64,000 nt of DNA. Origin: Haliotis cracherodii (lineage: Eukaryota). The stretch is from contig NW_027266274.1 of assembly GCF_022045235.1 (NCBI RefSeq), positions 4,154,001 through 4,218,000 on the forward strand. Reading direction: 5' to 3'. A program made the position numbers and the translations under genes. Below the pieces are notes generated by a model. The model saw only the letters and a list, made by a program, of their open reading frames with translations, did no database searches and was not told where the DNA came from. Below are positions 1,166 to 64,000 of the stretch, in pieces; position 1 is the first letter of the stretch; every line of letters begins with the position of its first letter.

Positions 1166-2659
1166 GATAATAAAAACATGTATCATGATAATTCCTGAAA
1201 GAATGAGGGAAGTACATACCTCAACGTACTAAGAGTGTTGAGAGGTGGCCATGTACACCTGTATACCTGACTGAGGTGGTCAGTGAGATATCAACACCCC
1301 TCGTTAACCTGTCGTCTCCCACATGTAGGTCAGTGACAATACACACCGTGCAGCCCAGTGCCGGCACCTGTATTGTCGCTGTCACACAGCAGATGTGAGA
1401 ACAGACTCTCAGTCATAACACAAGTCATGACAATAGGGCAACATTGAATAAACATTCATTACTTCTTAATGTTTGGTATTTCCAATAAAATATAGTCTTA
1501 AGTATAGGTACAAGTTATTGATTTTTAACATGTTTAAAGCATCTTAAGATATAGGAAGACCTTTTCATGATAACTTAATTTAATTCTTTGGAATGTATTT
1601 TACACCTCAGAACTCTAATCCACAATGCCTTCATCATATATACTGGATTCCAAATGGTGACGGTTTATTCTGAGGGAAAGCAAGTTTGCTCGCACACGCC
1701 AGAATATGAGATGGATTTCTCCCCATGTCCGCACACCACAACATTACAGTGTATAAGTATGCTGTATACAGCATTATTTACAGCTCAGCTAGCAAACATG
1801 CAGCCATGGACCTTGCTACAATCACATCATGTTAACTTATGCAAGCATACTAACCTCCAGAGACACCATCCGATGTCCCTACATGGGCTAGACGTCCACC
1901 CTAACCAATTGACGAAGCACTATTTTGGAGACTGTTTGCTCCAAGGAATGAAGTAAAAATCAATATATAGGCGAGAAGGCTTGACATCTAATACAGCCTC
2001 AAGTTGACACAAATGTCACTGAATGCATCTGACATGTGTGTGCTCAATTTCACATCAACATGCTTGTGACCTACATAATATGGACCAAGGCTATCTATAT
2101 TAGTGATATCCATAAACACACTTACAAAGCCTTGTCGCAACATTAATTACAATTAATTATTATTAATTTGTTTCTTTACACAAGTCATTTTTATATTGAT
2201 ATTCTTTTAGGGAAAAGCTAGATACATGTATTACTGAAACATTAATATTTTTATAATTATTTCAGAAGACCTTTAGAGACTTATTTGGTGTATTTGAACA
2301 ATTATCTGATCCTAACAACAGGCTTCTGTTTCAGGACAAATCCTTACCAGACAAATGATACAGAGACATGGCTACATAATGTCTACATAGAGCCCATTAT
2401 ACTTACAAGTCAACATTTACACAATCATTCATGATTTGGGTTGTTTTCCAGACACATCCCTGTATGGCTGGAGTGTATGGCTGGATCCCTGTTTTGTCTC
2501 AGAGCCAAGAAATAGGGTAAGGAATTATCAAAACTGGATTCTAGTTACTGTACTTGCCATAGTTATTGATCTGCTTGTGTAAGCAGCTCTGCAGTATTTG
2601 GACAGAATTAAGCATGTTACATCTCCAATAAATACCTGGCTCTATTTGCCCCTTGAAAC

Positions 2660-3790
2660 ATCCTCTAGCTCTGCTAGACCCTTGGAATACCAACTGGCTT
2701 TTGAAGAACCAAGTACCACCTAGCTCTGCCAGCCCCTTGTAACACCACCTAGCTCTGCCAGCCCCTTGTAACACCACCTAGCTCTGCCAGCCCCTTGTAA
2801 CACCACCTAGCTCTGCCAGCCCCTTGTAACACCAGGTAGCTCTGCCAGCCCCTTGTAACACCACCTAGCTCTGCCAGCCCCTTGTAACACCAGGTAGCTC
2901 TGCCAGCCCCTTGTAACACCAGGTAGCTCTGCCAGCCCCTTGTAACACCACCTAGCTCTGCCAGCCCCTTGTAACACCAGGTAGCTCTGCCAGCCCCTTG
3001 TAACACCAGGTAGCTCTGCCAGCCCCTTGTAACACCAGGTAGCTCTGCCAGCCCCGTGTAACACCAGGTAGCTCTGCCAGCCCCTTGTAACACCAGGTAG
3101 CTCTGACAACCCCTTTTAATACCACCTAGCTCTGCCAGCCCTTTGTAACACCACCTAGCTCTGCCAGCCCCTTGTAACACCACCTAGCTCTGCCAGCCCT
3201 TTGTAACACCAGGTAGCTCTGCCAGCCCCTTTTAATACCACCTAGCTCTGCCAGCCCTTTGTAACACCAGGTAGCTGTGCCAGCCCCTTTTAATACCACC
3301 TAGCTCTGCCAGCCCTTTGTAACACCAGGTAGCTCTGCCAGCCCCTAGTAAAACCACCTAGCTCTGCCAATCCTTTGTAACACCACCTAGCTCTGCCAGC
3401 CCTTTGTAACACCACCTAGCTCTGCCAACCTCTTGTAATACCACATAGCTCTGCCAACCTCTGTAATACCACATAGCTCTGCCAGCCCCTTGTAACACTA
3501 CATAGCTCTGCCAGCCCTTTGTAACACACTGTTAGCTCTGCCAGCCCCTAGTAAAACCATCTAGCTCTGCCAATCCTTTGTAACACCACCTAGCTCTGCC
3601 AGCCCCTTGTAACACCACCTAGCTCTGCCAGCCCTTTGTAACACCACCTAGCTCTGCCAACCTCATGTAATACCACCTAGCTCTGCCAACCTCTGTAATA
3701 CCACCTAGCTCTGCCAGCCCCTTGTAACACTACATAGCTCTGCCTGCCCCTTGTAACACCAGGTAGCTCTGCCAGCCCTTTGTAACAGTT
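2660..3790. repeat. 29-bp minisatellite (ACCACCTAGCTCTGCCAGCCCCTTGTAAC)n, ~37 units
   Basis: Direct tandem periodicity with ACCT/AGGT variants and degenerate edges. Explains the ORFs at 2541-3183. Confidence 0.97.
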
Positions 3791-8805: not shown

Positions 8806-9199
8806 CTGGCACCTAATGACATTCTCATTATTGGCATTAAATTTCCAAGGTAAACATGAATATGGACCTTTTTATTAACATATGATTTTTGCATCATTTC
8901 TGTCCAAAAGCTTTATGAGAGTCTTAAAAAAATGATCTCAATTATAATCATCACCAGCAACAGAAGCTGTGCATAAATTAAACCAATTTCTTGTATTTAG
9001 ATTCTTTTGGGACATGAAAATGTACTTAAGCCTTGTGTACATTTAATCTGTGTGCAGTGTTACACATCTCCAACTGAGGCACAAGAAAGTTTGAGCCCCC
9101 AGATGAAAGTGTTGTTCTCTGTGCACTAGGAAATGATGGAGTCGAGGTTGAAGGAAGGACACTGAGCAATCGATATGAATGTGCTCTGATTGCAGCAGG

Positions 9200-9930
9200 G
9201 AGATGGGGCAGTGATGGGGTCGGCTGGTGGATGGCCAGAATTACGTCACCAGTGGGCAGCAGCAAGATGGGGCAGCGATGGGGTCGGCTGGTGGTAGAGT
9301 TGGTTGACGGCCAGAATTACGTCACCAGTGGGCAGCAGCAGGATGGGGCAGTGAAGGGGTCGGCTGGTGGACAGCCAGAATTACGTCACCAGTGGGCAGC
9401 AGCAAGATGGGGCAGCGATGGGGTCGGCTGGTGGTAGAGTTGGTTGACGGCCAGAATTACGTCACCAGTGGGCAGCAGCAGGATGGGGCAGTGAAGGGGT
9501 CGGCTTGTGGACGGCCAGAATTACGTCACCAGTGGGCAGCAAGATGGGGCAGCGATGGGGTCGGCTGGTGGACGGACAGAATTACGTCACCAGTGGGCAG
9601 CAGCAAGATGGGGCAGCGATGGGGTCGGCTGGTGGACGGACAGAATTACGTCACCAGTGAGCAGCAGCAAGATGGGGCAGCGATGGGGTCGGCTGGTGGT
9701 AGAGTTGGTGGACGGACAGAATTACGTCACCAGTGGGCAGCAGCAAGATGGGGCAGCGATGGGGTCGGCTGGTGGACGGCCAGAATTACGTCACCAGTGG
9801 GCAGCAGCAAGATGGGGCAGCGATGGGGTCGGCTGGTGGACGGCCAGAATTACGTCACCAGTGGGCAGCAGCAAGATGGGGCAGTACAGTTCCTGTGATG
9901 TAGTTGGGGCAGTGATGGGGTCGGCTGGCA
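9200..9930. repeat. G-rich 64/76-bp minisatellite, 10 core units
   Basis: AGAATTACGTCACCAGTGGGCAGCAGCAAGATGGGGCAGCGATGGGGTCGGCTGGTGG repeated, with an optional 12-bp insert. Confidence 0.96.
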
Positions 9931-10399
9931 GTCTTCTACATTCATAGACATGAGATAGGAAACCATTTTTGCCAAGATCTCAGATAGGAAAACGTACTGA
10001 GTGACATGTGAAATAGGACAGCTAAAAGGTTGAGATATGTAACAAAACAATTTATTGGGTGATTGAAAGAAAACTTTATTGATAAAATATACATGAAGTA
10101 AAGGATCAAGGTAGATAAAAGGTTGAAGAGTACAGAATCCTATGAATAAGGATGGTCTCCAACATTCCCACGTAGGGAATTAGTAAGACAAGGAATGTGG
10201 GATTGTTAAAAGAAAAAAATAAGATTTCAGTCTACTTACAAATCTGACAATGACTATGCTTGTTACTAATTTCACAAAATGTTTTTTTCTAAAATGTAAG
10301 ACAAGGGAATTAGTCAGAAATGTCCCCATATTTCCTTACATGACCAGTAACATGTATCAAATGTCAAATAATAAAATAAGAGCCAGCACTAGCTCCCGT

Positions 10400-11072
10400 G
10401 TATATAATCAGCTCCCAGCAACCATCAGCTCCTGTCTACAATCAGCTCCCAGCCACAATCAGCTCCTGTCTACAATCTACTCCCTGTCTACAATCAGCTC
10501 CCTGTCTACAATCTACTCCCTGTCTACAATCAGCTCCCTGTCTATAATCTACTCCCTGTCTACAATCAGCTCCCTGTCTACAATCAGCTCCTGTCTACAA
10601 TCAGCTCCCTGTCTACAAACTACTCCCTGTCTACAATCAGCTCCCTGTCTACAATCTACTCCCTGTCTACAATCAGCTCCCAGCCACAATCAGCTCCTGT
10701 CTACAATCAGCTCCTGTCTTCAATCAGCTCCTTTCCACAATCAGCTCCTGTCTACAATCAGCTCCTGTCACCAGTCAGCTCCTGTCACCAGTCAGCTCCT
10801 GTCTACAATCATCTCCTGTCTACAATCTACTCCCTGTCTACAATCAGCTCTCTGTCTACAATCATCTCCTTCCCACAGTTCCTGTCTACAGTCAGCTCCT
10901 ATCTACAATCTACTCCCTGCCACAATCAGCTCCTGTCCACAATCAGCTCCTGTCTACAATCAGCTCCTGTCTACAATCAGCTCCCAGCCACAATCAGCTC
11001 CTGTCTACAATCAGCTCCCGTCACCAGTCAGCTCCTGTCACCAGTCAGCTTCTGTCACCAGTCAGCTCCTGT
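10400..11072. repeat. 17-18-bp degenerate tandem repeat (CTACAATCAGCTCC(C)TGT)n
   Basis: Direct periodicity. Explains the 358-aa low-complexity ORF. Confidence 0.95.
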
Positions 11073-14000
11073 CCTACCCTATGGCCACCTGGATCATGTT
11101 GTGGCTGGCATCACTTAGTAACACATTAGAAACCTTTCCAGATGCTTGCAATAAATCCAGACCTTCTGAACTGATTAAATTAAGAGGCCAGTTCTCCACT
11201 GATAAAAGCACTTCAGCTGTGTTTGCATTCCATTTCTGGGTAATAACCAGCAATTATCATCCTTATCTCCTGTATCCTGCTGTCCTGCTGATCTGTAGAA
11301 TGTTTTCTGACATATTTGTATTCTAGCTGAAAGAATTTCTGTGAAACTACCCTAAAACAAGTCATAAATATTGTTGATCTATAGCAAAGACTCATTGGCT
11401 TTCCTTAGACATGTTAAAAAGTATTCCTACTAAAGTCTTGAAACAAACTCCTCAAATCACATCACATCAAAACACAGCAACTGAGAAGTTTCAACTTGAT
11501 ATCAAATCATTTCAAAATATGTGTTTCAACCACAAATATGTAACTTAGTGAGTATACCAATTGATTGGATTGAAGTTGCTCCCGTGAGTATTTTCATTAG
11601 AACAATTGCTGAACAAAACTGTCATAGAAAAAAAGAAACATGATTTCCATCTATCTGAATATGTTTGAAAAACATAATGAGAGCTGTTTTGTTTCCAATA
11701 TGTTTAATGCTGATGATTTAAGGAGATGCAGTCGCTGCCTGACTCAGCGAGGTGCAGCCATCTTGGCGGACGACCAGCATTCTTTGTACGTGATACAGGA
11801 TAAAACTCCTTATCACCTCATCGGTGCTTTGCTGCATGGAATCAGCCATTGCAACATCAGCACAAACGTAAACGATTATCTTAAAAATATAAACATTTCC
11901 CTTTTGGACGTAGAGATCTGATAGTCACAACAGAAAATATATCTTTGTTTATCAAAATATGTGTAAACTGGTATATATAATAAGTAAGATGAAAATAACA
12001 CGATGAAGACCTCTGACATATTCACATTTATGACATTTTGGGGGAATATAGGATAGATTTTTAATTAATAGTAATGCAGGATGAAGCATGATTTTGTGCA
12101 TGTGTCACATTTCACACAAGACACATATTTATAAATCCTAGTAAATCTTCCCCATGTACACCGCAGTTTAACAAGGATGCAGGTCTCAAAACACAGCCAG
12201 ATGTTGCTTTCATTAGCATCAGTTTGTCCTGTCACAGTTGAAGAAGTGTTCTCAGGCTGCAGGAGTGTCGGCTCCACTTTCCAGCCAGGAGATCCAAAGG
12301 CGGTAACACGATACTGGCACCATTTGGTTGTGGACTTGTATGAAAACATTCCGTAAAAACATACTGTAAGCCATTCAAGAGTTGAGACAGGTTCTAACAA
12401 AGTTGTCTTGTCAAAGCAATATAATTTACAAACATGTCAACAATATGTTCCTTCTTTTTTAGATTGCCATATGAAGTATTTTGATAGGATAGGAATTACA
12501 CAGACTGTCATTTGTTTGAAATACAACCAACATTCTCATCCTATTAGAAATAGCCACATGTAGTGTTTTGATTGGTTAGAAATTCAATGAATTGGTTTGA
12601 TCAGGATCGTTTTTTGTTTGAAACCCAACCCATCCCATTTAACACTGGTTACAAACCACTATTTTAACATGTCCTGAACCTTTGAACGAGGTCAGCCCAA
12701 CATTTGTGTTTCAAGTAGTGGTGCTGTTACATCCCACATGCTCGTGATAACAGTTTCATATGACCTGTAACAAAGACCGAGATGGTGAGGTGATGATACA
12801 CTTCTCACATGACATCTGCATTTTTGCATGTCTATGAAAGTCATCTCTAATCTTTTACTTCCCATTCAGATAACAATAACTGGATACACTTCCTGGTGTA
12901 ACGATTACCAAACAAAGGTTCCAACATTAAATGTTCCAGGTTAAATATATTCTTACGTAAGAGATATAACTATTTTGTAGTGTATGTAAGTTTGTCAGAA
13001 TTTCCAAAATAATATTATCATAAAGGGGGACAATTCAGCTATGGATTGACACATTCCAGTCATCTGTAACACGTTTCAGACAAAATTCATAAATCATGAA
13101 CCATTTACATGTTCTTCACTTGAAAAAACCCAACAGTTATAAATTTTTAAAAGTACTTCAAATACATCTTACAACACCAACACAAGACCATCAGCCACTT
13201 GAATATGGCCGCCATCACACCTGTCCACAATGACTCAGCGCTGCTGGAGCTAATGCAGCGTGACAGAAACAGTCTTTACTGTGACTGTCATTGATTTGTG
13301 TGTTTCTATTACACCAACTGTCTTTAATAACAACTCAGTCATATGGTTTACACTCTGTAATGTGCAGCCATACATGTCGTTTATCAGGTGTGATTGGCTT
13401 GACAATACTATCAGAGAGAGAAAAAACGTGTTAGATGCAAATACAAAATGCCTGACAATGTACTTGATTTCTTTCAGTTGTTTGTTTGAAATGCTAATGT
13501 GTTATGATAACATGTTTTGCTATCTTTACAATTTGAAAATGTCCTGAATTTCCTGTTATGTTTTTATCCATAGGCTAAAAAAATAATAGGTCTTGGTTCT
13601 CAGGCACTGCCTACATCATCATAAAGTTCGCCGCAAAAACCACTGTCCGCCCGCACTATATATAAAAAAACATAGCCTGAGAACCAAATCTTTTATTTTT
13701 CTAAGCCATGGCTGCTACATCTTATTACAGACATATTGCTGGTTAATACGTGATATAGACGTTGGTGTCACTGGGGTGTGTTGTGTGTTTTATTATATGA
13801 AATCAGCTCCAGCTATGCACCAGGAAGATATGCACAACAGTAACAGGGCTCACAGCCTGGCTGGGGGAATGTGGTCACAGGGGAGAAACACTGCTATTGT
13901 TTACATGGGTGAATGTTTTCATGCTACTTGTCAGCTGGAAGATCCTGCTGGAGTGTTAAACAATGCCATTAGCAGAGGAGAGTCATTAATTATGTCAAAA

Positions 14001-14075: not shown

Positions 14076-16870
14076 CATGTGGTGTGTGGTGTACAGTATT
14101 CTTGTAAAGGGGACAGTACTGCCATCTGGTGTACAGTATTCCTGTACAGGGGACAGTACTGCCATGTGGTGTGTGGTGGACAGTATTCCAGTACAGGGGA
14201 CAGTACTGCCATGTGGTGTGTGGTGTACAGTATTCCTGTACAAGGGACAGTACTGCCATGTGGTGTACAGTATTCCTGTACAGGGGACAGTACTGCCATG
14301 TGGTGTACAGTATTCCTGTACAGGGGACAGTACTGCCATGTGGTGTACAGTATTCCTGTACAGGGGACAGTACTGTCATGTGGTGTACAGTATTCCTGTA
14401 CAGGGAACAGTACTGCCATGTGGTGTACAGTATTCCTGTACAGGGGACAGTACTGCCATGTGGTGTGTGGTGTACAGTATTCCTGTACAAGGGACAGTAC
14501 TGCCATCTGGTGTACAGTATTCCTGTACAGGGGACAGTACTGCCATGTGGTGTACAGTATTCCTGTACAGGGGACAGTACTGTCATGTGGTGTACAGTAT
14601 TCCTGTACAGGGGACAGTACTGCCATGTGGTGTACAGTATTCCTGTACAGGGGACAGTACTGCCATGTGGTGTACAGTATTCCTGTACAGGGGACAGTAC
14701 TGCCATGTGGTGTACAGTATTCCTGTACAGGGGACAGTACTGCCATGTGGTGTACAGTATTCCTGTACAGGGGACAGTACTGTCATGTGGTGTACAGTAT
14801 TCCTGTACAGGGAACAGTACTGCCATGTGGTGTACAGTATTCCTGTACAGGGGACAGTACTGCCATGTGGTGTGTGGTGTACAGTATTCCTGTACAAGGG
14901 ACAGTACTGCCATGTGGTGTACAGTATTCCTGTACAGGGAACAGTACTGCCATGTGGTGTACAGTATTCCTGTACAGGGGACAGTACTGTCATGTGGTGT
15001 ACAGTATTCCTGTACAGGGGACAGTACTGTCATGTGGTGTACAGTATTCCTGTACAGGGGACAGTACTGCCATGTGGTGTACAGTATTCCTGTACAGGGG
15101 ACAGTACTGCCATGTGGTGTACAGTATTCCTGTACAGGGGACAGTACTGCCATGTGGTGTACAGTATTCCTGTACAGGGGACAGTACTGCCATGTGGTGT
15201 ACAGTATTCCTGTACAGGGGACAGTACTGTCATGTGGTGTACAGTATTCCTGTACAGGGAACAGTACTGCCATGTGGTGTACAGTATTCCTGTACAGGGG
15301 ACAGTACTGCCATGTGGTGTGTGGTGTACAGTATTCCTGTACAGGGGACAGTACTGCCATGTGGTGTACAGTATTCCTGTACAGGGGACAGTACTGCCAT
15401 GTGGTGTACAGTATTCCTGTACAGGGGACAGTACTGTCATGTGGTGTACAGTATTCCTGTACAGGGGACAGTACTGCCATGTGGTGTACAGTATTCCTGT
15501 ACAGGGGACAGTACTGCCATGTGGTGTGTGGTGTACAGTATTCCTGTACAAGGGACAGTACTGCCATGTGGTGTACAGTATTCCTGTACAGGGAACAGTA
15601 CTGCCATGTGGTGTACAGTATTCCTGTACAGGGGACAGTACTGCCATGTGGTGTACAGTATTCCTGTACAGGGGACAGTACTGCCATCTGGTGTACAGTA
15701 TTCTTGTACAGGGGACAGTACTGCCATGTGGTGTACAGTATTCCTGTACAGGGGACAGTACTGCCATGTGGTGTGTGGTGTACAGTATTCATGTACAGGG
15801 GACAGTACTGCCATGTGGTGTACAGTATTCTTGTAAAGGGGACAGTACTGCCATCTGGTGTACAGTATTCCTGTACAGGGGACAGTACTGCCATGTGGTG
15901 TGTGGTGTACAGTATTCCTGTACAGGGGACAGTACTGCCATGTGGTGTACAGTATTCCTGTACAGGGGACAGTACTGCCATGTGGTGTACAGTATTCCTG
16001 TACAGGGGACAGTACTGCCATGTGGTGTACAGTATTCCTGTACAGGCGACAGTACTGCCATGTGGTGTGTGGTGTACAGTATTCCTGTACAGGGGACAGT
16101 ACTGCCATGTGGTGTACAGTATTCCTGTACAGGGGACAGTACTGCCATGTGGTGTACAGTATTCCTGTACAGGGGACAGTACTGCCATGTAGTGTACAGT
16201 ATTCCTGTACAGGCGACAGTACTGCCATGTGGTGTACAGTATTCTTCTACAGGGGACAGTACTGCCATGTGGTGTACAGTATTCCTGTACATGCGACAGT
16301 ACTGCCATGTGGTGTGTGGTGTACAGTATTCCTGTACAGGGGACAGTACTGCCATGTGGTGTACAGTATTCCAGTACAGGGGACAGTACTGCCATGTGGT
16401 GTACAGTATTCCAGTACAGGGGACAGTACTGCCATGTGGTGTACAGTATTCCTGTACAGTACTGCCATCTGGTGTACAGTATTCCTGTACAGTACTGCCA
16501 TCTGGTGTACAGTATTCCTGTACAGGGGACAGTACTGCCATGTGGTGTACAGTATTCCTGTACAGGGGACAGTACTGTCATGTGGTGTACAGTATTCCTG
16601 TACAGTACTGCCATCTGGTGTACAGTATTCCTGTACAGTACTGCCATCTGGTGTACAGTATTCCTGTACAGGGGACAGTACTGCCATGTGGTGTACAGTA
16701 TTCCTGTACAGGGGACAGTACTGCCATGTGGTGTACAGTATTCCTGTACAGTACTGCCATCTGGTGTACAGTATTCCTGTACAGGGGACAGTACTGCCAT
16801 GTGGTGTACAGTATTCCTGTACAGGGGACAGTACTGTCATGTGGTGTACAGTATTCTTGTACAGGGGAAC
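14076..16870. repeat. 40-bp minisatellite (GTGGTGTACAGTATTCCTGTACAGGGGACAGTACTGCCAT)n, ~2.8 kb
   Basis: Highly homogeneous units with +7-bp (GTGGTGT) variants and shortened variants near the right end. Source of all the 200-950 aa ORFs here. Confidence 0.99.
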
Positions 16871-32984: not shown

Positions 32985-33713
32985 TTTAATCATCATCATC
33001 ATCATCCTTAACAGTCCTATTCCTCCTCCCCCTCATCATCATCAGTCCTTGTCCTCCTCCTCCTTATCAGTCCTCCTCCTCCTCATTGTCATCATCAGTC
33101 CTAGTCCTCCTCCTAATCAGTCCTAGTCCTCCTCCTCTTCCTTGTCAGTCCTCCTCCTCCTCATCGTCATCATCAGTCCTAGTCCTTCTCCCCCTCAGTC
33201 CTAGTCCTCTTCCTTATCAGTCCTAGTCCTCCTCATCATCATCAGTCCTAGTCCTCCTCCTCTTCCTTGTCAGTCCTAGTCCTCTTCATCATCAGTCCTA
33301 GTCCTACTCCTCATCAGTCCTAGTCCTCCTCCTCATCAGTCCTAGTCCTCCTCCTCATCAGTCCTAGTCCTCCTCCTCCTCAGTCCTAGTCCTCCTCCTT
33401 ATCAGTCCTAGTCCTCCTCATCATCATCAGTCCTAGTCCTCCTCCTCTTCCTTGTCAGTCCTAGTCCTCCTCATCATCAGTCCTAGTCCTACTCCTCATC
33501 AGTCCTAGTCCTCCTCCTCATCAGTCCTAGTCCTCCTCCTCCTCAGTCCTAGTCCTCCTCCTCCTCAGTCCTAGTCCTCCTCCTTATCAGTCCTAGTCCT
33601 CCTCCTCAGTCCTAGTCCTCCTCATCAGTCCTAGTCCTCCTCTTCCTCATCATCAGTCCTAGTCCTCCTCCTCATCATCATCATCAGTCTTAGTCCTCCT
33701 CATCATCATCAGT
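32985..33713. repeat. Compound pyrimidine-rich repeat [CAGTCCTAG(TCC)n(TCA)m]n
   Basis: Direct periodicity with variable trinucleotide runs. The acidic minus-strand frame is interrupted by TAG in each unit. Confidence 0.95.
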
Positions 33714-50242: not shown

Positions 50243-52162
50243 ATGGCGCCTAAAGGAAAAGCTCCCGCCATTGGCATAGACCTGGGAACCACCTACTCTT
50301 GTGTTGGTGTGTTCCAGAATGGAAAGGTGGAGATTATCGCCAACGACCAGGGCAACAGAACCACCCCCAGCTACGTGGCCTTCACTGACACTGAGCGTCT
50401 ACTCGGGGATGCCGCTAAAAACCAGGTGTCGCTGAACCCACAGAACACTGTGTTTGACGCCAAGAGACTGATCGGCAGACAATTTGAGGACAGCACTGTC
50501 CAAAACGACATGAAACACTGGCCGTTCCGCGTTGTCAACAGTTCAGGCAGTAAGCCCAAACTACAGGTGGAGTACAAGGGAGAAAAGAAGACGTTTGCAC
50601 CCGAGGAAATCAGCTCCATGGTGCTGAGCAAGATGAAGGAGACAGCTGAGGCGTACCTTGGACAGCAGGTGACTGATGCAGTGATAACAGTGCCTGCATA
50701 CTTCAACGACTCTCAGAGACAGGCGACCAAGGATGCGGGGGCCATTGCAGGGCTGAAAGTATTGAGAATCATCAACGAGCCTACTGCAGCTGCCCTGGCC
50801 TATGGTCTGGACAAGAACTTGAAGGGGGAGAGGAATGTGCTCATATTTGATTTGGGAGGTGGCACATTTGACGTGTCTGTGCTGACCATAGACGAGGGCT
50901 CCGTGTTTGAGGTGAGGTCAACTGCGGGGGATACTCATCTGGGAGGGGAGGACTTTGACAACCGAATGGTGGACCATTTCCTCCAGGAGTTCAAGAGGAA
51001 GTTCAGGAAGGACATCAGCAATAACGCACGTGCCATGAGACGTCTGCGCACTGCATGTGAACGTGCCAAGAGAACTCTGTCCAGTAGCACAGAGGCTGGT
51101 ATAGAAATTGACTCCCTGCATGAGGGAGTGGACTTTTACTCCAAAATCAGCAGGGCACGATTTGAGGAGCTGTGTTCCGATCTGTTCCGCTCAACTTTGG
51201 AGCCAGTGGAGAAAGCTCTGAGAGATGCTAAACTGGACAAGTCTCGTATCCACGATGTGGTGTTGGTGGGAGGTTCCACACGAATCCCCAAGATTCAGAA
51301 GCTGCTGCAGAATTTCATGAATGGCAAAGATCTGAACAAGTCCATCAACCCCGATGAAGCTGTGGCTTACGGAGCTGCAGTGCAGGCTGCCGTGCTGAGT
51401 GGGGACACGAGCGACGCCATCAAGGATGTTCTGCTGGTGGACGTTGCTCCGCTGTCCTTGGGTATCGAGACTGCTGGAGGTGTGATGACCAAGTTGATTG
51501 ATTGGAACACAAGAATCCCCACCAAGGCAAACCAGACCTTCACAACCTACTCCGACAACCAGCCAGGTGTCAGCATCCAGGTGTTTGAAGGGGAGAGGGG
51601 TCTCACGAAAGACAACAACATTCTGGGCAAGTTTGAGCTCACAGGTATTCCCCCAGCCCCCAGAGGTGTGCCTCAGATTGAAGTGACATTTGACATTGAT
51701 GCTAATGGCATCCTGAATGTGTCTGCAGTTGACAAGAGCACTGGCAAGTCCAACAACGTCACCATCAGTAATGACAAAGGTCGTCTGAGCAAGGCCGACA
51801 TTGATAGAATGGTGTCTGAAGCTGAGAAGTACAAGGAAGAGGATGAGAAACACAAGGAGAGAATCGCTGCCAGGAACCACCTGGAGAACTACGTGTTCAG
51901 TGTGAGGGCCAGTGTGGACGAGATGGGCAGCAAGATGGAGGATGTGGACAAGCAGACAATAAGCAAAGCTTGTGAGGAGACGCTGCAGTGGCTGGACAAG
52001 AACTCCCTGGCGGAGAAGGAGGAGTTTGAGCAGCAGTACAAGCAGCTTGAGAGGCTCTGCTGCCCAGTCATGTCCAAACTCCACAGTCAGGGAGGTCCGC
52101 AGCAGGAGGGCGGGGCCAGCAGGGGGCCCAGTAGGGGGCCCAGTGTGGAGGAGATGGACTAG
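50243..52162 (+). CDS. hsp70: Inducible-type Hsp70, copy 2 (639 aa; chimeric; R421W)
   Basis: Intact ORF nearly identical to copies 1 and 3. Confidence 0.97.
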
Positions 52163-52832
52163 ACACATCCATTCAGGACTGACCTCAACAGTGTTAGAAT
52201 AAGACTTGTTAATGTGTGAAATGTTGTATGAATGAATGTTGGTGCATACATGTTGTCAGTTCTGTTTATATTGATTCAGCACACTCTACATGCTGATCAT
52301 GACACAGTATGATGTTTATATTTTTGAAACTGTTATGAAATAAATAATGAAAAGCATTTGATTGTGTTTTCTATGTTTTTACATGCAACCTATAACATGT
52401 TTGAGCTATCAGTTTTGGTTACTGTCATTTTGCTGTTAGCCAAAAGGAAAGAGATTTATCAACTTCTTGGAAGGGTTTCTGTTAATTGGTTGATATATTT
52501 GCAGCTGAGGATGAAATAAGCTCTTGTTCCTGTTTAACTGTCAAACATGTTCCCAGTCACTGAGTTGGTGGGTTCAAATCCTATATCCACCCCAGTTATG
52601 AGCCTTTGAGGAACACTGAATAGGGGCTACACACATTGTATCCATTGTACCCTTAGGCATGAAGAGCAACCACTTTAACTGTGAGACTACCCCTTCAACT
52701 TCCTGGAATCTGTGAAGTATGGTTCTACAGCACGTTTAGCATTATTTCATACATACTGCACATTCTCTTCACACATTGCACCAGTATGGGGAATCGAACA
52801 TGGGTGATCAGCTTGAGAAGCAAACTGTTTGA

Positions 52833-53866
52833 CCTCCAGGTTGTCCCACCCCTTATATGTATCCTCTAGGCTGTCCCACCCCCTGTACGTGTCCTCTAGG
52901 CTGTCCCACCCCTTTATACGTGTCCTCTTGGCTGTCCCACCACTTGTACATATCCTCTAGGCTGTCCCACCCCTTTATACGTGTCCTCTTGGCTGTCCCA
53001 TTCCCTGTACGTATCCTCTAGGTTGTCCCACCCCTTTATACGTGTCCTCTTGGCTGTCCCACCCCCTGTACGTATCCTCTAGGCTGTCCCACCCCTTTAT
53101 ACGTATCCTCTATGCTGTCCCACCCCATGTACGTATCCTCTAGGCTGTCCCACCCCATGTACGTATCCTCTAGGGTGTCTCACCCCTTATACGTATCCTC
53201 TAGGCTGTCCCACCGCTTGTACGTGTCCTCTTGGCTGTCCCATGCCTTGTACGTGTCCTCTGGGCTGTCCCACTTCTTGTACGTATCCTCTGGGCTCTCC
53301 CACCCCATGTACGTGTCCTCTAGGCTCTCCCACTACTTGTACGTGTCCTCTGGGCTGTCCAACCCTTTGTACGTATCCTCTAGGCTGTCCCACCCCTTGT
53401 ACGTATCCTCTATATTGTCCCACCCCATGTACGTATCCTCTAGGCTGTCCCACCCCATGTACGTATCCTCTAGGGTGTCTCACCCCTTATACGTGTCCTC
53501 TAGGATGTCCCATGCCTTGTACGTGTCCTCTGGGCTGTCCCACTTCTTGTACGTGTCCTCTGGGCTGTCCCACCCCCATGTACGTATCCTCTAGGCTGCC
53601 CCACCCCTTGAACGTGTCCTCTTGGCTGTCCCACCCCTTGTACGTGTCCTCTAGGCTGCCCCACCCCTTGTACGTGTCCTCTGGGCTGTCCCACCCCCAT
53701 GTACGTATCCTCTAGGCTGCCCCACCCCTTGAACGTGTCCTCTTGGCTGCCCCACCCCTTGAACGTGTCCTCTAGGCTGCCCCACCCCTTGTACGTGTCA
53801 TCTAGTCTATCCCACCCTTTGTACGTATCCTCTAGGCTGTCCCACACCTTGTACGTGTCCTCTTGG
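52833..53866. repeat. 30-bp minisatellite, unit 2 (near identical to unit 1)
   Basis: Same variant order as 46605-47638 at offset 6228. Confidence 0.97.
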
Positions 53867-56080
53867 TGTTTGAGCTAGAATCAAGGAGGACCAAGTTACT
53901 GCTGAAAATAGAGTGCTTGATTGTCGGACTGCTGCTGTGACCTGGCTGGTTTGATTCATATTTACAGGCTGGTGAAATCTTGTCATTTGCCAAGAAAATG
54001 TGGCTACGTTTTATACAAACTACATCAATCTAAGAAATACTAACTGTTAATTACTGTGAAGGGCAAACACCTAAAAATGATACCAGCCTTCCCTGACAGA
54101 GGTTGATGCACGAACAAGTTGCTGTAGAAACATGAATATCATGCACTTTGAACAGATTTAGCAGTCATCTTTTCTGAAACAAATAACCAAAGAAACATTT
54201 TCATTTGGACCTGAGCTAATTTGATAGCAAAACCTCGGTATAGCAACGAATGAAAACATAGTTTGGTCTTAATGCAGTCTGCGAGAAAATGCTGTAGTAA
54301 AGTGAAGACCGTCAAAGTCAAAGGTACAGTGCTCGTGTGGTCAAAGGGAGATAATCCATAAGGAAATGCGATGCCAAAGGTTTGTCACTTAAAGAATACA
54401 ATTAGGGAAAATAGCTAAGCGCCAGCAGTTCTTTTTTTCTATGTCAGAAATTTCCATGGATCTTTTTGAAACACCGACGTAAGACGTCGATCTCATTTTG
54501 ATGAATGTCTAAGAGTGAGTGAGTGAGTGAGTACAAGTTACAGTCATTGAATGTCCATGACGCGACCGATTCTGGGTCGCATCGTATATGATTCAAAGAT
54601 GAGTGCTGAGTGCGGTGTTGAACAACAAACAAACAAACTTGTTCAGTCCACTCTCCACCAACACAGCCGATGCATGGGGACTTATGAATGGTGTGTACAA
54701 TGTAATGACTTCACGTCATACTGTTGCTGTCATTTACACCTTATGTTCTGGTACGATGTTTTAGTTGCTTTCTGATAAACTCGTCTCATCCCCATCCGTA
54801 TTATATGTAGATATACACATTAAGCAGGACAATGTTCAGATCACTTGTTGGAACGAGAAACCAAGTTAGCGTTGCACGTGCGAAATTACGAGCCGGTCTT
54901 GCACGTGTGCACCATGATTTGAGATGCGTTCAATTCGCTTGCTGGCACTTTCGGAAACACCTTCACACCTTTATTTCTTCTTATTTCACATTTTCCAATG
55001 TTTCTGTTTATAAGTGAGATACATCAGGACAGGATACATCATCACTTCTCACAGTTTGTGCCACAGGATTTTCCTCATGGATTGTTTGTACGATTTATGA
55101 CTTTTGGCAAAACACAAAGGACGACACGATATGAAAAGTTGACTTCTTATTTATATCCTTATTTGACACCCATATATTTGTTTTGAGATGCCAGCAGTGA
55201 GTAGTTCAATCTGCTAGAAATTTCACTCAGAAGGGTATAGGNNNNNNNNNNNNNNNNNNNNNNNNNNNNNNNNNNNNNNNNNNNNNNNNNNNNNNNNNNN
55301 NNNNNNNNNNNNNNNNNNNNNNNNNNNNNNNNNNNNNNNNNNNNNNNNNNNNNNNNNNNNNNNNNNNNNNNNNNNNNNNNNNNNNNAGGGTCATCCCAAA
55401 ATATGATATATGACAGTCTCTTGTGGAGGGTCATAAACAAATCATACACAGATTAGGGGAGGGCCGTGGGAAGAAAATGGACATTTTATGTTAAATAGAC
55501 AGTGCTTGTGACTTTGGGAGGCTCGTGATAAACAATGTACAAGGATACGAGGAGATTCATCTAAAAATATGACAAGCATTAGCCACAGACCATAAAATAC
55601 ATTAATTTTTATAGTCTCTGCATAAGGGGAGGGTAATTATTTTAATTATGTTACACAGTTGTTATATTCACACCCTGGCTTACCCCACAAATCATATGTC
55701 ATTGAATCACATATGTATTCACCAAAAACACACCGAAAAAGAGAACGATAGAGCATTTTACACGAACACAAAGCACTAATCAAAACTGATGTAGTTTACC
55801 AAAACAATTCTGTATATATGTTTCCAAACAGTCAGTCTTTTTTAAAGAACATATAATAAGGCTGTAGAATACGTTCGCCACCTTGATGTCATCCCAAATA
55901 GGGAATATTTTGGTGGGGACAGACCAAATCGGTAAATAATATGGTCTTTGGTAGGGAGAATATAAACATTGCATAGATTGATGTATATTTAATATAGTTA
56001 GAGGGTGGAGAGCGGATTCTACACTCGCACCCGATTTCCTCAGTTCCTAAGTCGCACAAGATAAGTGAGACCGTGACATC

Positions 56081-56272
56081 ATTCAGGAAATAAACTACAT
56101 GTTGAGTTGCCAAAAGCAAATTCGAGAATCTGCGAAGAGTTACTTCCCTTACAGGGATTCCCCTGTAAGTTGTGACGTCACATTCTAGAGGTTTCCTGAA
56201 GAGACGAGACGGTTGTACACAAATCCACGCTGGTGTGGAAGTATGGAGAAGGTAAGGGGACTGGTATATATA
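56081..56272 (+). promoter_or_regulatory. hsp70 copy 3 promoter
   Basis: Same module; kappaB-like site at 56154-56163, TATA at 56265-56272. Confidence 0.87.
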
Positions 56273-56445
56273 CAGGCGGTCTGTCAGACCACAGCCATAC
56301 ACCAAGCTGGAAGCGTACACTACTGTATACTACCGATACACAGAGAAGTAGCGAGGGAGACCACACACTTTCTGACTGTCAGATAGGCTACACTGAAGTG
56401 ACTTAGTTCAAGAAGATATTATTGAAGTTGGTTGTTTTGAAGAGA

Positions 56446-58353
56446 ATGGCGCCTAAAGGAAAAGCTCCCGCCATTGGCATAGACCTGGGAACCACCTACT
56501 CTTGTGTTGGTGTGTTCCAGAATGGAAAGGTGGAGATTATCGCCAACGACCAGGGCAACAGAACCACCCCCAGCTACGTGGCCTTCACTGACACTGAGCG
56601 TCTACTCGGGGATGCCGCTAAAAACCAGGTGTCGCTGAACCCACAGAACACTGTGTTTGACGCCAAGAGACTGATCGGCAGACAATTTGAGGACAGCACT
56701 GTCCAAAACGACATGAAACACTGGCCGTTCCGCGTTGTCAACAGTTCAGGCAGTAAGCCCAAACTACAGGTGGAGTACAAGGGAGAAAAGAAGACGTTTG
56801 CACCCGAGGAAATCAGCTCCATGGTGCTGAGCAAGATGAAGGAGACAGCTGAGGCGTACCTTGGACAGCAGGTGACTGATGCAGTGATAACAGTGCCTGC
56901 ATACTTCAACGACTCTCAGAGACAGGCGACCAAGGATGCGGGGGCCATTGCAGGGCTGAAAGTATTGAGAATCATCAACGAGCCTACTGCAGCTGCCCTG
57001 GCCTATGGTCTGGACAAGAACTTGAAGGGGGAGAGGAATGTGCTCATATTTGATTTGGGAGGTGGCACATTTGACGTGTCTGTGCTGACCATAGACGAGG
57101 GCTCCGTGTTTGAGGTGAGGTCAACTGCGGGGGATACTCATCTGGGAGGGGAGGACTTTGACAACCGAATGGTGGACCATTTCCTCCAGGAGTTCAAGAG
57201 GAAGTTCAGGAAGGACATCAGCAATAACGCACGTGCCATGAGACGTCTGCGCACTGCATGTGAACGTGCCAAGAGAACTCTGTCCAGTAGCACAGAGGCT
57301 GGTATAGAAATTGACTCCCTGCATGAGGGAGTGGACTTTTACTCCAAAATCAGCAGGGCACGATTTGAGGAGCTGTGTTCCGATCTGTTCCGCTCAACTT
57401 TGGAGCCAGTGGAGAAAGCTCTGAGAGATGCTAAACTGGACAAGTCTCGTATCCACGATGTGGTGTTGGTGGGAGGTTCCACACGAATCCCCAAGATTCA
57501 GAAGCTGCTGCAGAATTTCATGAATGGCAAAGATCTGAACAAGTCCATCAACCCCGATGAAGCTGTGGCTTACGGAGCTGCAGTGCAGGCTGCCGTGCTG
57601 AGTGGGGACACGAGCGACGCCATCAAGGATGTTCTGCTGGTGGACGTTGCTCCGCTGTCCTTGGGTATCGAGACTGCTGGAGGTGTGATGACCAAGTTGA
57701 TTGACAGGAACACAAGAATCCCCACCAAGGCAAACCAGACCTTCACAACCTACTCCGACAACCAGCCAGGTGTCAGCATCCAGGTGTTTGAAGGGGAGAG
57801 GGCTCTCACAAAAGACAACAACATTCTGGGCAAGTTTGAGCTCACAGGTATTCCCCCAGCCCCCAGAGGTGTGCCTCAGATTGAAGTGACATTTGACATT
57901 GATGCTAATGGCATCCTAAATGTGTCTGCAGTTGACAAGAGCACTGGCAAGTCCAACAACGTCACCATCAGTAATGACAAAGGTCGTCTGAGCAAAGCCG
58001 ACATTGATAGAATGGTGTCTGAAGCTGAGAAGTACAAGGAAGAGGATGAGAAACACAAGGAGAGAATCGCTGCCAGGAACCACCTGGAGAACTACGTGTT
58101 CAGTGTGAGGGCCAGTGTGGACGAGATGGGCAGCAAGATGGAGGATGTGGACAAGCAGACAATAAGCAAAGCTTGTGAGGAGACGCTGCAGTGGCTGGAC
58201 AAGAACTCCCTGGCGGAGAAGGAGGAGTTTGAGCAGCAGTACAAGCAGCTGGAGAAACTCTGCTGCCCAGTCATGTCCAAACTCCACAGTCAGGGAGGTC
58301 CGCAGCAGCAGGGCGGGGCCGGCAGGGGGCCCAGTGTGGAGGAGATGGACTAG
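56446..58353 (+). CDS. hsp70: Inducible-type Hsp70, copy 3 (635 aa)
   Basis: Intact ORF. Lacks the 12-bp C-terminal duplication and has canonical GERA and IDRN. Confidence 0.98.
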
Positions 58354-59027: not shown

Positions 59028-60804
59028 CCTCCAGGTTGTCCCACCCCTTATATGTATCCTCTAGGCTGTCCCACCCCCTGTACGTGTCCTCTAGGCTGCC
59101 CCACACCTTGTACGTGTCCTCTTGGCTGTCCCACCCCTTGTACGTATCCTCTTGGCTGTCCCACCCCCTGTACGTGTCCTCTAGGCTGCCCCACACCTTG
59201 TATGTGTCCTCTTGGCTGTCCCACCCCTTGTACGTATCCTCTACGCTGTCCCTCCCCTTGTACGTGTCCTCTAGGCTGCCCACCCCTTGCAAGTGTCCCC
59301 TAGGCTGCCCCACCCCTTGTACGTATCCTCTTGGCTGTCCCACCCCCTGTACGTGTCCTCTAGATTGTCCCACCCCTTGTACGTGTCCTCTAGGCTGTCC
59401 CACCCTTTGTACGTGTCCTCTAGGCTGTCCCATCCCTTGTACGTATCCTCTAGGCTATCCCAGCCCTTGTACGTATCCTCTAGGCTGTCCCACCCCTTGT
59501 ACGTGTCCTCTTGGCTGTCCCATGCCTTGTACGTATCCTCTGGGCTGTCCGACCCCTTGTACGTATCCTCTGGGCTGTCCCACTCCTTGTACGTATCCTC
59601 TTGGCTGTCCCACCCCTTGTACCTATCCTCTAGGCTGTCCCACCCCTTGTATGTATAGTCTAGGCTGTCCAACCCTTTGTACGTATCCTCTAGGCTGTCC
59701 CACCCCATGTACGTATCATCTAGGCTGTCCCACCCCTTGTATGTATAGTCTAGGCTGTCCAACCCTTTGTACGTATCCTCTAAGCTGTCCCACCCCTTGT
59801 ACGTATCCTCTATGCTGTCCCACCCCATGTACGTATCCTCTAGGCTGTCCCACCCCATGTACGTATCCTCTAGGGTGTCTCACCCCTTATACGTATCCTC
59901 TAGGCTGTCCCACCGCTTGTACGTGTCCTCTTGGCTGTCCCATGCCTTGTACGTGTCCTCTGGGCTGTCCCACTTCTTGTACGTATCCTCTGGGCTCTCC
60001 CACCCCATGTACGTGTCCTCTAGGCTCTCCCACTATTTGTACGTGTCCTCTAGGCTGTCCCACCCCTTGTATGTATAGTCTAGGCTGTCCAACCCTTTGT
60101 ACGTATCCTCTAGGCTGTCCCACCCCTTGTACGTATCCTCTATGCTGTCCCACCCCATGTACGTATCCTCTAGGCTGTCCCACCCCATGTACGTATCCTC
60201 TAGGCTGTCTCACCCCTTATACGTATCCTCTAGGCTGTCCCATGCCTTGTACGTGTCCTCTGGGCTGTCCCACTTCTTGTACGTATCCTCTGGGCTCTCC
60301 CACCCCTTGTACGTGTCCTCTAGGCTCTCCCACCACTTGTACGTGTCCTCTAGGCTGTCCCACCCCTTGTACGTGTCCTCTAGGCTCTCCCACCACTTGT
60401 ACGTGTCCTCTAGGCTGTCCCACCCCATGTACGTATCCTCTAGGCTGCCCCACCCCTTGAACGTGTCCTCTTGGCTGTCCCACCCCTTGTACGTGTCCTC
60501 TAGTCTATCCCACCCTTTGTACGTATCCTCTAGGCTGTCCCACCCTTTGTAAGTGTCCTCTAGTCTATCCCACCCTTTGTACGTATCCTCTAGGCTGCCC
60601 CACCCCTTGAACGTGTCCTCTTGGCTGTCCCACCCCTTGTACGTGTCCTCTAGTCTATTCCACCCTTTGTACGTATCCTCTAGGCTGTCCCACCCCTTGT
60701 ATGGGTCCTCTAGGCTGTCCCACCCCTTGTATGGGTCCTCTAGGCTGTCCCACCCCTTGTACGTGTCCTCTAGGCTGTCCCACACATTGTACGTGTCCTC
60801 TTGG
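59028..60804. repeat. 30-bp minisatellite, unit 3, ~59 units
   Basis: Direct periodicity with internal multi-unit block duplications. Confidence 0.97.
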
Positions 60805-63393: not shown

Positions 63394-64000
63394 ATGGCGC
63401 CTAAAGGAAAAGCTCCCGCCATTGGCATAGACCTGGGAACCACCTACTCTTGTGTTGGTGTGTTCCAGAATGGAAAGGTGGAGATTATCGCCAACGACCA
63501 GGGCAACAGAACAACCCCCAGCTACGTGGCCTTCACTGACACTGAGCGTCAACTCGGGGATGCCGCTAAAAACCAGGTGTCGCTGAACCCACAGAACACT
63601 GTGTTTGACGCCAAGAGACTGATCGGCAGACAATTTGAGGACAGCTCTGTCCAAAACGACATGAAACACTGGCCGTTCCGCGTTGTCAACAGTTCAGGCA
63701 GTAAGCCCAAACTACAGGTGGAGTACAAGGGAGAAAAGAAGACGTTTGCACCCGAGGAAATTAGCTCCATGGTGCTGAGCAAGATGAAGGAGACAGCTGA
63801 GGCGTACCTTGGACAGCAGGTGACTGATGCAGTGATAACAGTGCCTGCATACTTCAACGACTCTCAGAGACAGGCGACCAAGGATGCGGGGGCCATTGCA
63901 GGGCTGAGAGTATTGAGAATCATCAACGAGCCTACTGCAGCTGCCCTGGCCTATGGTCTGGACAAGAACTTGAAGGGGGAGAGAAATGTGCTGATATTTG
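63394..64000 (+). CDS. hsp70: Inducible-type Hsp70, copy 4, 5' part (runs off the window)
   Basis: [19 protein letters not shown]..., open to the window end. Confidence 0.95.

Follow-up and report, generated by a model that had tools for sequence, protein, structure and literature searches.

A hybrid hsp70 gene in a tandem array of the abalone Haliotis cracherodii and its probable origin by unequal crossover

The window analysed here, a stretch of 64,000 nucleotides from Haliotis cracherodii (contig NW_027266274.1 of assembly GCF_022045235.1), carries a head-to-tail array of hsp70 open reading frames, all of them intronless, that start at 44015, 50243, 56446 and 63394; the window's end falls within the array. 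The features are listed below, with positions counted within the window unless an assembly location (G000) is given.

44015-45934, plus strand: hsp70 copy 1, 639 aa, donor type for the 3′ half of copy 2
50243-52162, plus strand: hsp70 copy 2, 639 aa, a chimera with a 5′ part of copy-3 type and a 3′ part of copy-1 type
56446-58353, plus strand: hsp70 copy 3, 635 aa, donor type for the promoter and 5′ half of copy 2
63394-64000, plus strand: hsp70 copy 4, 5′ portion (whole gene at G000:C11:4217394-4219298, 635 aa)
G000:C11:4224574-4226477, outside the window: hsp70 copy 5, the array's last, frameshifted by a 1-bp deletion close to codon 417, its reading frame stopping at 417 aa
G000:C11:9384018-9385922, minus strand: hsp70 copy 6, a close relative 5 Mb from the array
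52121-52132, plus strand: 12-bp in-frame duplication by the C terminus, in copies 1 and 2 alone
46605-47638, no strand assigned: 30-bp minisatellite behind copy 1, 1034 bp, 34 units
52833-53866, no strand assigned: 30-bp minisatellite behind copy 2, 1034 bp, 34 units, with the unit order found behind copy 1
59028-60804, no strand assigned: 30-bp minisatellite behind copy 3, 1777 bp, 59 units in another order

Copy 2 is an intronless, full-length Hsp70 open reading frame whose 639-aa product ends in GPSVEEMD, the EEVD-like kind of C terminus expected of a cytosolic inducible-type Hsp70, and matches Hsc70 with an E-value of 3.3e-51 across 105 aa. The coding sequences of copies 1 and 3 are 99% alike, and the hybrid protein lies three to four residues off either parent, apart from the four-residue tail repeat. 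Copy 3 falls into one 90% cluster with the heat shock protein 70 kDa A2 of Haliotis fulgens (AXR98608.1), which shares its length and C terminus and, unlike copy 2, has arginine at residue 421 and lacks the 12-bp duplication; both members (two of two) of the cluster holding the 639-aa form are the two proteins of this window. Among the remaining relatives, copy 5, with its broken frame, is likely a pseudogene; it also carries numerous private changes, its resemblance to the other copies stops shortly past the stop codon, and no minisatellite follows it. Copy 6 is followed by the same 30-bp minisatellite in the form of a 6.6-kb array, and its upstream sequence is 77% identical to the private upstream of copy 1 and 73% to part of the array spacer, a double resemblance that suggests copy 6 may be near the source of the array. 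An intron-bearing Hsp70-family gene on another contig (G000:C5:12616441-12735905), 50-65% identical to copy 2, shows three near-identical sets of matches ~40-46 kb apart and two more, and appears to form another young tandem array. Elsewhere in the window, long open reading frames across unrelated minisatellites (2634-3787, 9192-9885, 10391-11073, 14085-16868 and 32987-33713, with periods of 29, 64-76, 17, 40 and 22) are by-products of the repeats.

Alignment of copies 1-3 over 49832-52832 yields 54 variable sites, each indel counted once, of which 50 are informative; the other four (50000, 50059, 51503 and 52698) are private to copy 2 or different in all three copies. Up to 51312 copy 2 agrees with copy 3 at every informative site (28 of 28), and from 51502 onwards it agrees with copy 1 at 20 of 22, the exceptions being 52062 and 52473. 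A single switch thus accounts for 48 of the 50 sites, a fit matched by none of 100,000 shuffles in a permutation test; within the coding sequence taken by itself it fits 20 of 21 sites, and 12 of 100,000 shuffles did as well. The two 3′ sites of copy-3 type require small conversions or parental polymorphism, and short conversions between the copies are evident elsewhere in the form of alleles patchily common to copies 1, 4, 5 and 6. With copies 4-6 as outgroups, the alleles exclusive to copies 2 and 3 (49835, 49866, 50362 and 51097) all lie to the left of the switch, and all eight exclusive to copies 1 and 2 (51600, 51607, 52048, 52053, 52054, 52106, 52118 and the 12-bp duplication) lie to its right, which rules out the mosaic as mere private drift in the front of copy 1 or the back of copy 3. 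A first-pass annotation of this DNA had described copy 2 as being of copy-3 type up to 51312 and of copy-1 type from 51502 with few exceptions, among them the TGC TGC at 52062, and the counts bear it out, adding 52473 as a second exception. It had also counted the promoter and long 5′UTR of copy 2 among the matches to copy 3; the sequence upstream of copy 2 is not entirely of copy-3 type, seven substitutions and a 1-bp insertion separating the two within 49184-50242.

The same annotation had placed the crossover within 51313-51501, and the minimal interval in which the switch must lie is exactly that:

51313-51501, plus strand: minimal crossover interval, codons 357-420

Aligned with Hsc70, these codons presumably cover the end of the nucleotide-binding domain, the linker and the start of the substrate-binding domain. 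Copies 1 and 3 are identical throughout the 189 bp that match the interval, and copies 2 and 3 show no differences across 50243-51501. The two bounding sites are not exclusive, the allele at 51312 occurring also in copy 4 and that at 51502 also in copy 5, and a conservative interval set by alleles exclusive to two copies extends over 51098-51599.

The switch in copy 2 is also the boundary between two copies of a 6.2-kb block:

45085-51312, plus strand: left block copy, comprising the 3′ half of copy 1, the spacer, and the promoter and 5′ half of copy 2
51313-57515, plus strand: right block copy, comprising the 3′ half of copy 2, the spacer, and the promoter and 5′ half of copy 3

Across 6246 aligned bases the left and right blocks show 13 substitutions (0.21%), plus one inserted base, as against a divergence of 0.6-5% in comparable parts of other copy pairs: 1.1% in the coding sequence and 4.75% in the promoter of copies 1 and 3, 1.9-2.4% in the upstream spacer, and 0.63% plus indels in the spacer after the minisatellite. 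Stretches of N (170, 145 and 229 bases) lie at the same point in each spacer and were excluded from every comparison; the unit lengths are 6228 and 6203, and the 25-bp gap between them sits in these stretches. The likeness between copies 1 and 2 begins, and that between copies 2 and 3 ends, in one and the same homologous window of 189 bp, so the block of likeness measures a single unit, the length expected from a crossover. After the minisatellite, spacers 1-2 and 2-3 are identical for 1375 bp, whereas spacer 3-4 shows eight substitutions and indels, and the 34-unit minisatellites behind copies 1 and 2 differ by two substitutions, with that behind copy 4 running to 2048 bp and 67 units. Both the minisatellite length and variant order of copy-1 type and the near identity of the first two spacers against a differing third had been noted from the letters of the DNA, and both are confirmed.

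Given that short conversions did occur among these copies, copy 2 might instead be old, with a long gene-conversion tract, offset by one unit, having homogenised the blocks while copy number stayed unchanged. Such a tract would have to measure 6.0-6.4 kb, agreeing only by chance, to about 3%, with the 6228-bp unit, and would have to overwrite the length of the minisatellite as well; moreover, the depth of a public sequencing run, described below, points to a genuine change in copy number. We regard this account as highly improbable, and as the least credible of those weighed here.

The mosaic, the block duplication and the low divergence between the blocks are observations, and we think it quite probable that they have one explanation, namely that unequal crossover gave rise to copy 2, which takes its promoter and its first half from copy 3 and its second half, together with the 3′ flank, from copy 1. 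Specifically, copies 1 and 3 would have misaligned and exchanged inside their common coding sequence, and the exchange would have duplicated the 6.2 kb between them with the hybrid copy 2 at the junction. Several features by which a hybrid gene of this kind is recognised are present, in addition to the single switch: copies 1 and 3 are intact at either side, the intervening DNA is duplicated, and the breakpoint lies within a tract of identity (189 bp) between the parents. That crossover was the mechanism is likely in the light of established recombination genetics. The arrangement corresponds to the anti-Lepore layout, in which a hybrid stands between its two intact parents, beginning like the downstream gene and ending like the upstream one. 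Hybrid genes formed by unequal crossover of tandem paralogues are described for beta-globin, CYP11B1/CYP11B2, glycophorin and KIR (PMC4041002, PMC8750845, PMC11073628, PMC2816608). Copy 2 resembles the anti-Lepore fusions of the beta-globin type in lying between intact parents and in joining a downstream 5′ part to an upstream 3′ part; unlike in those fusions, the two abalone parents share 99% of their coding sequence, and the hybrid is known by its sequence and not by any new expression domain or activity. Similarly, in Stratiomys singularior and the Drosophila virilis group, tandem inducible hsp70 genes are homogenised by conversion, gained or lost through unequal recombination, and subject to promoter swaps (PMC3071340). 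The abalone array shares with these dipteran clusters the tandem hsp70 copies, the conversion, the probable unequal recombination and the resulting promoter swap, and differs from them in belonging to a mollusc, in a gain whose breakpoint is mapped in coding sequence, and in a minisatellite that marks the event.

The alternative raised from the outset was an assembly artefact, in which a four-copy array would have had its two haplotypes strung together in tandem, by a jump from copy 3 of one to copy 1 of the other. The 13 differences between the blocks might be allelic, and false duplications derived from haplotypes are reported to be frequent in assemblies (PMC9516828). Against this, the sequence runs on unbroken across the join, which sits within 189 bp of identity with differing flanks, assembly G000 contains no second copy of the region elsewhere, and two independent alleles would seldom be expected to have the same order of 34 units in a fast-changing minisatellite. 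The artefact also makes a prediction about dosage, namely that sequence upstream of the genes of copy-2/3 type should be present at single depth.

Of 21 public runs, four (X1 and X19-X21) were aligned to 49195-51740. From X19-X21, of which about one part in 100 was sampled, came 13, 64 and 60 short reads, too shallow for dosage or phase, and about nine-tenths of these reads continue into unlike sequence, with adapter at one loose end. The contigs of X1 cover the upstream side, with none over the coding sequence. Among the pieces listed (8 of 29), the branches of X1 that carry copy-2/3 alleles reach depths of 58.3 (49671-49778), 58.3 (49749-49865) and 49.3 (49836-49896), and parallel branches of copy-4/5 type have depths of 15.6 and 25.1. 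A contig from the private upstream and promoter of copy 1, a sequence mostly single-copy that ends distally in a short dispersed repeat, has a depth of 16.1, and for a third contig, which has C at 49866, subtraction gives about 14. Contigs that touch the stretch but are unrelated show depths of 13.3-16.8, so that about 15-16 looks like the depth of a single locus; two others show 6.1 and 7.2. The sampled stretch occurs at four places only in the assembly. Short dispersed repeats occupy 49195-49450 in the spacer, where many X1 contigs match in part, and also 43200-43325, just 5′ of copy 1, with many matches of 78-89% on other contigs.

These depths suggest three to four promoter units of copy-2/3 type in X1 as compared with the two assembled, or 1.5-1.8 if a depth of 16 represents one haplotype, a ratio that comes from a few short contigs (48-117 bp) whose word depth is not identical with copy number, and from a run that may represent another animal than the one assembled. 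A 559-bp contig of X1 aligns with the upstream region of copy 2 without a gap and with two other letters, one of them at 49380, and thereby contains the insertion private to copy 2 along with no fewer than three of its four private substitutions there. The extra promoter-side units look real, and their number probably varies between animals. What X1 documents is amplification on the promoter side alone; it does not extend to copy-1 3′ halves on the added units, and the hybrid junction is known from the assembly alone, no read or contig of X1 (which lacks coding-sequence contigs) or of the shallow X19-X21 spanning it. This speaks in favour of the artefact, but the single depth that it predicts contrasts with depths of 49-58 against about 16 for a single locus, three to four times that value and at minimum 1.5-1.8 times, and we hold the artefact, which the first-pass annotation had kept as its alternative, to be very unlikely. 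The annotation had also proposed read depth as a check, with one unit fewer than assembled counting against a duplication; for the upstream part, the depth of X1 suggests as many units as assembled or more. Its central proposal, unequal crossover between genes 1 and 3, accordingly has the mosaic, the one-unit block and the depth in an outside run in its favour.

In white abalone the mutation rate is given as 8.6e-9 per site per generation (10.1101/2024.09.16.613283), at which 13 differences translate into about 1.2e5 generations as an upper bound. Four of the 13 block differences (49380, 50059, 52062 and 52473) are alleles found in other copies too. Crossover between homologues begins with allelic differences that are already present. 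For both reasons the age of the block is only a ceiling. The block duplication is the youngest event in the array, and the description of it as recent stands in that relative sense but not on a pedigree scale. The nine private changes between the blocks that can be polarised are confined to the copy-2 unit (49286-53495), leaving the outer parts free of them; they comprise eight substitutions and one insertion, at 49286, 49289, 49308, 49394, 49670, 50000, 51503, 52698 and 53495. Taken as about seven events, the clustering has a chance of about 0.02 and was noticed post hoc. It runs counter to the simple expectation from a single event. Such a concentration in the middle unit would suit a two-step route, in which an intrachromatid crossover of copies 1 and 3 released a 6.2-kb circle with the hybrid gene that was then reinserted at a spacer, or a history of repeated gain and loss that left one middle unit; the end sequence would be the same, and X1 hints at further rounds of amplification. 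Since this route takes more steps, none of them demanded by the sequence, we consider it very improbable and retain the single unequal crossover as our reading.

With regard to expression, a consensus scan that allowed one mismatch found two sites resembling heat-shock elements (HSEs) in the promoter of copy-2/3 type:

49913-49930, plus strand: HSE-like site
49980-49997, plus strand: HSE-like site

Both sites are matched in each of copies 2-4, but copy 1's proximal promoter, with one substitution in either site, gives no match. The promoter and leader of copy 1 (43636-44014) combine these weaker HSE matches with a 32-bp deletion that shortens the 5′ leader; its upstream sequence is private beyond about -380, and its protein carries G27A in the conserved FQNGK turn. 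Copy 1 may be less heat-inducible, and copy 2 is predicted to be heat-inducible from the near-identity of its promoter to that of copy 3.

Whether the extra gene supplies a working chaperone is put in doubt by a single codon:

51503-51505, plus strand: codon 421, CGG in copy 1 and TGG in copy 2, giving R421W, private to copy 2

Residue 421 aligns with R416 of Hsc70 and, by equal-length gap-free coordinates, with K414 of DnaK; arginine is kept in copies 1, 3, 4 and 6 and in proteins P0004-P0009, and tryptophan occurs in copy 2 only. The equivalence of DnaK K414 and Hsp70 R416 is given in a passage of PMC6017645, which also has K414I abolishing two-way allostery, and an extract of PMC4595643 has the same mutation raising basal ATPase 26-fold and K414 bonding to D326. 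The interdomain clamp residue is thus not intact in copy 2, with membership of the Hsp70 family unaffected. The position in the substrate-binding domain is that of K414I, but the change in copy 2 is from arginine to tryptophan in a eukaryotic Hsp70; by analogy, R421W likely weakens the coupling of ATP to substrate, and since it strikes a residue of allostery, the extra copy may add little chaperone or a faulty one. The substitution, whose base is known from the assembly, would have arisen in copy 2 later than the crossover, and a weakened copy 2 likely fits what is expected of a redundant young duplicate. The copy-number gain claimed at first is thus upheld as an extra unit, with X1 suggesting that more than one has been added in the species, but a functional gain is doubtful.

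Among the titles and abstract openings examined, no published account of this abalone hsp70 array was found. The mechanism is a textbook one and not new; R421W in copy 2 is a new observation. A bolder proposal, which we rate as unlikely, sees in the hybrid unit a cassette of a wild abalone that is actively expanding and polymorphic in copy number, placing a strong heat-shock promoter in front of copy-1 tails, with the Hsp70 of some units allosterically uncoupled by R421W; if this were true, heat tolerance would be set by how many units of which type an animal has, and a single junction marker could suffice to type them. In Drosophila, hsp70 copy number tracks expression and inducible thermotolerance (PMC2257928). 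In the abalone, R421W means that copy counts may overstate the working dosage of hsp70. The mapped junction and the diagnostic alleles provide a cheap marker of hsp70 copy number in a marine mollusc whose tolerance of heat matters for conservation and farming.
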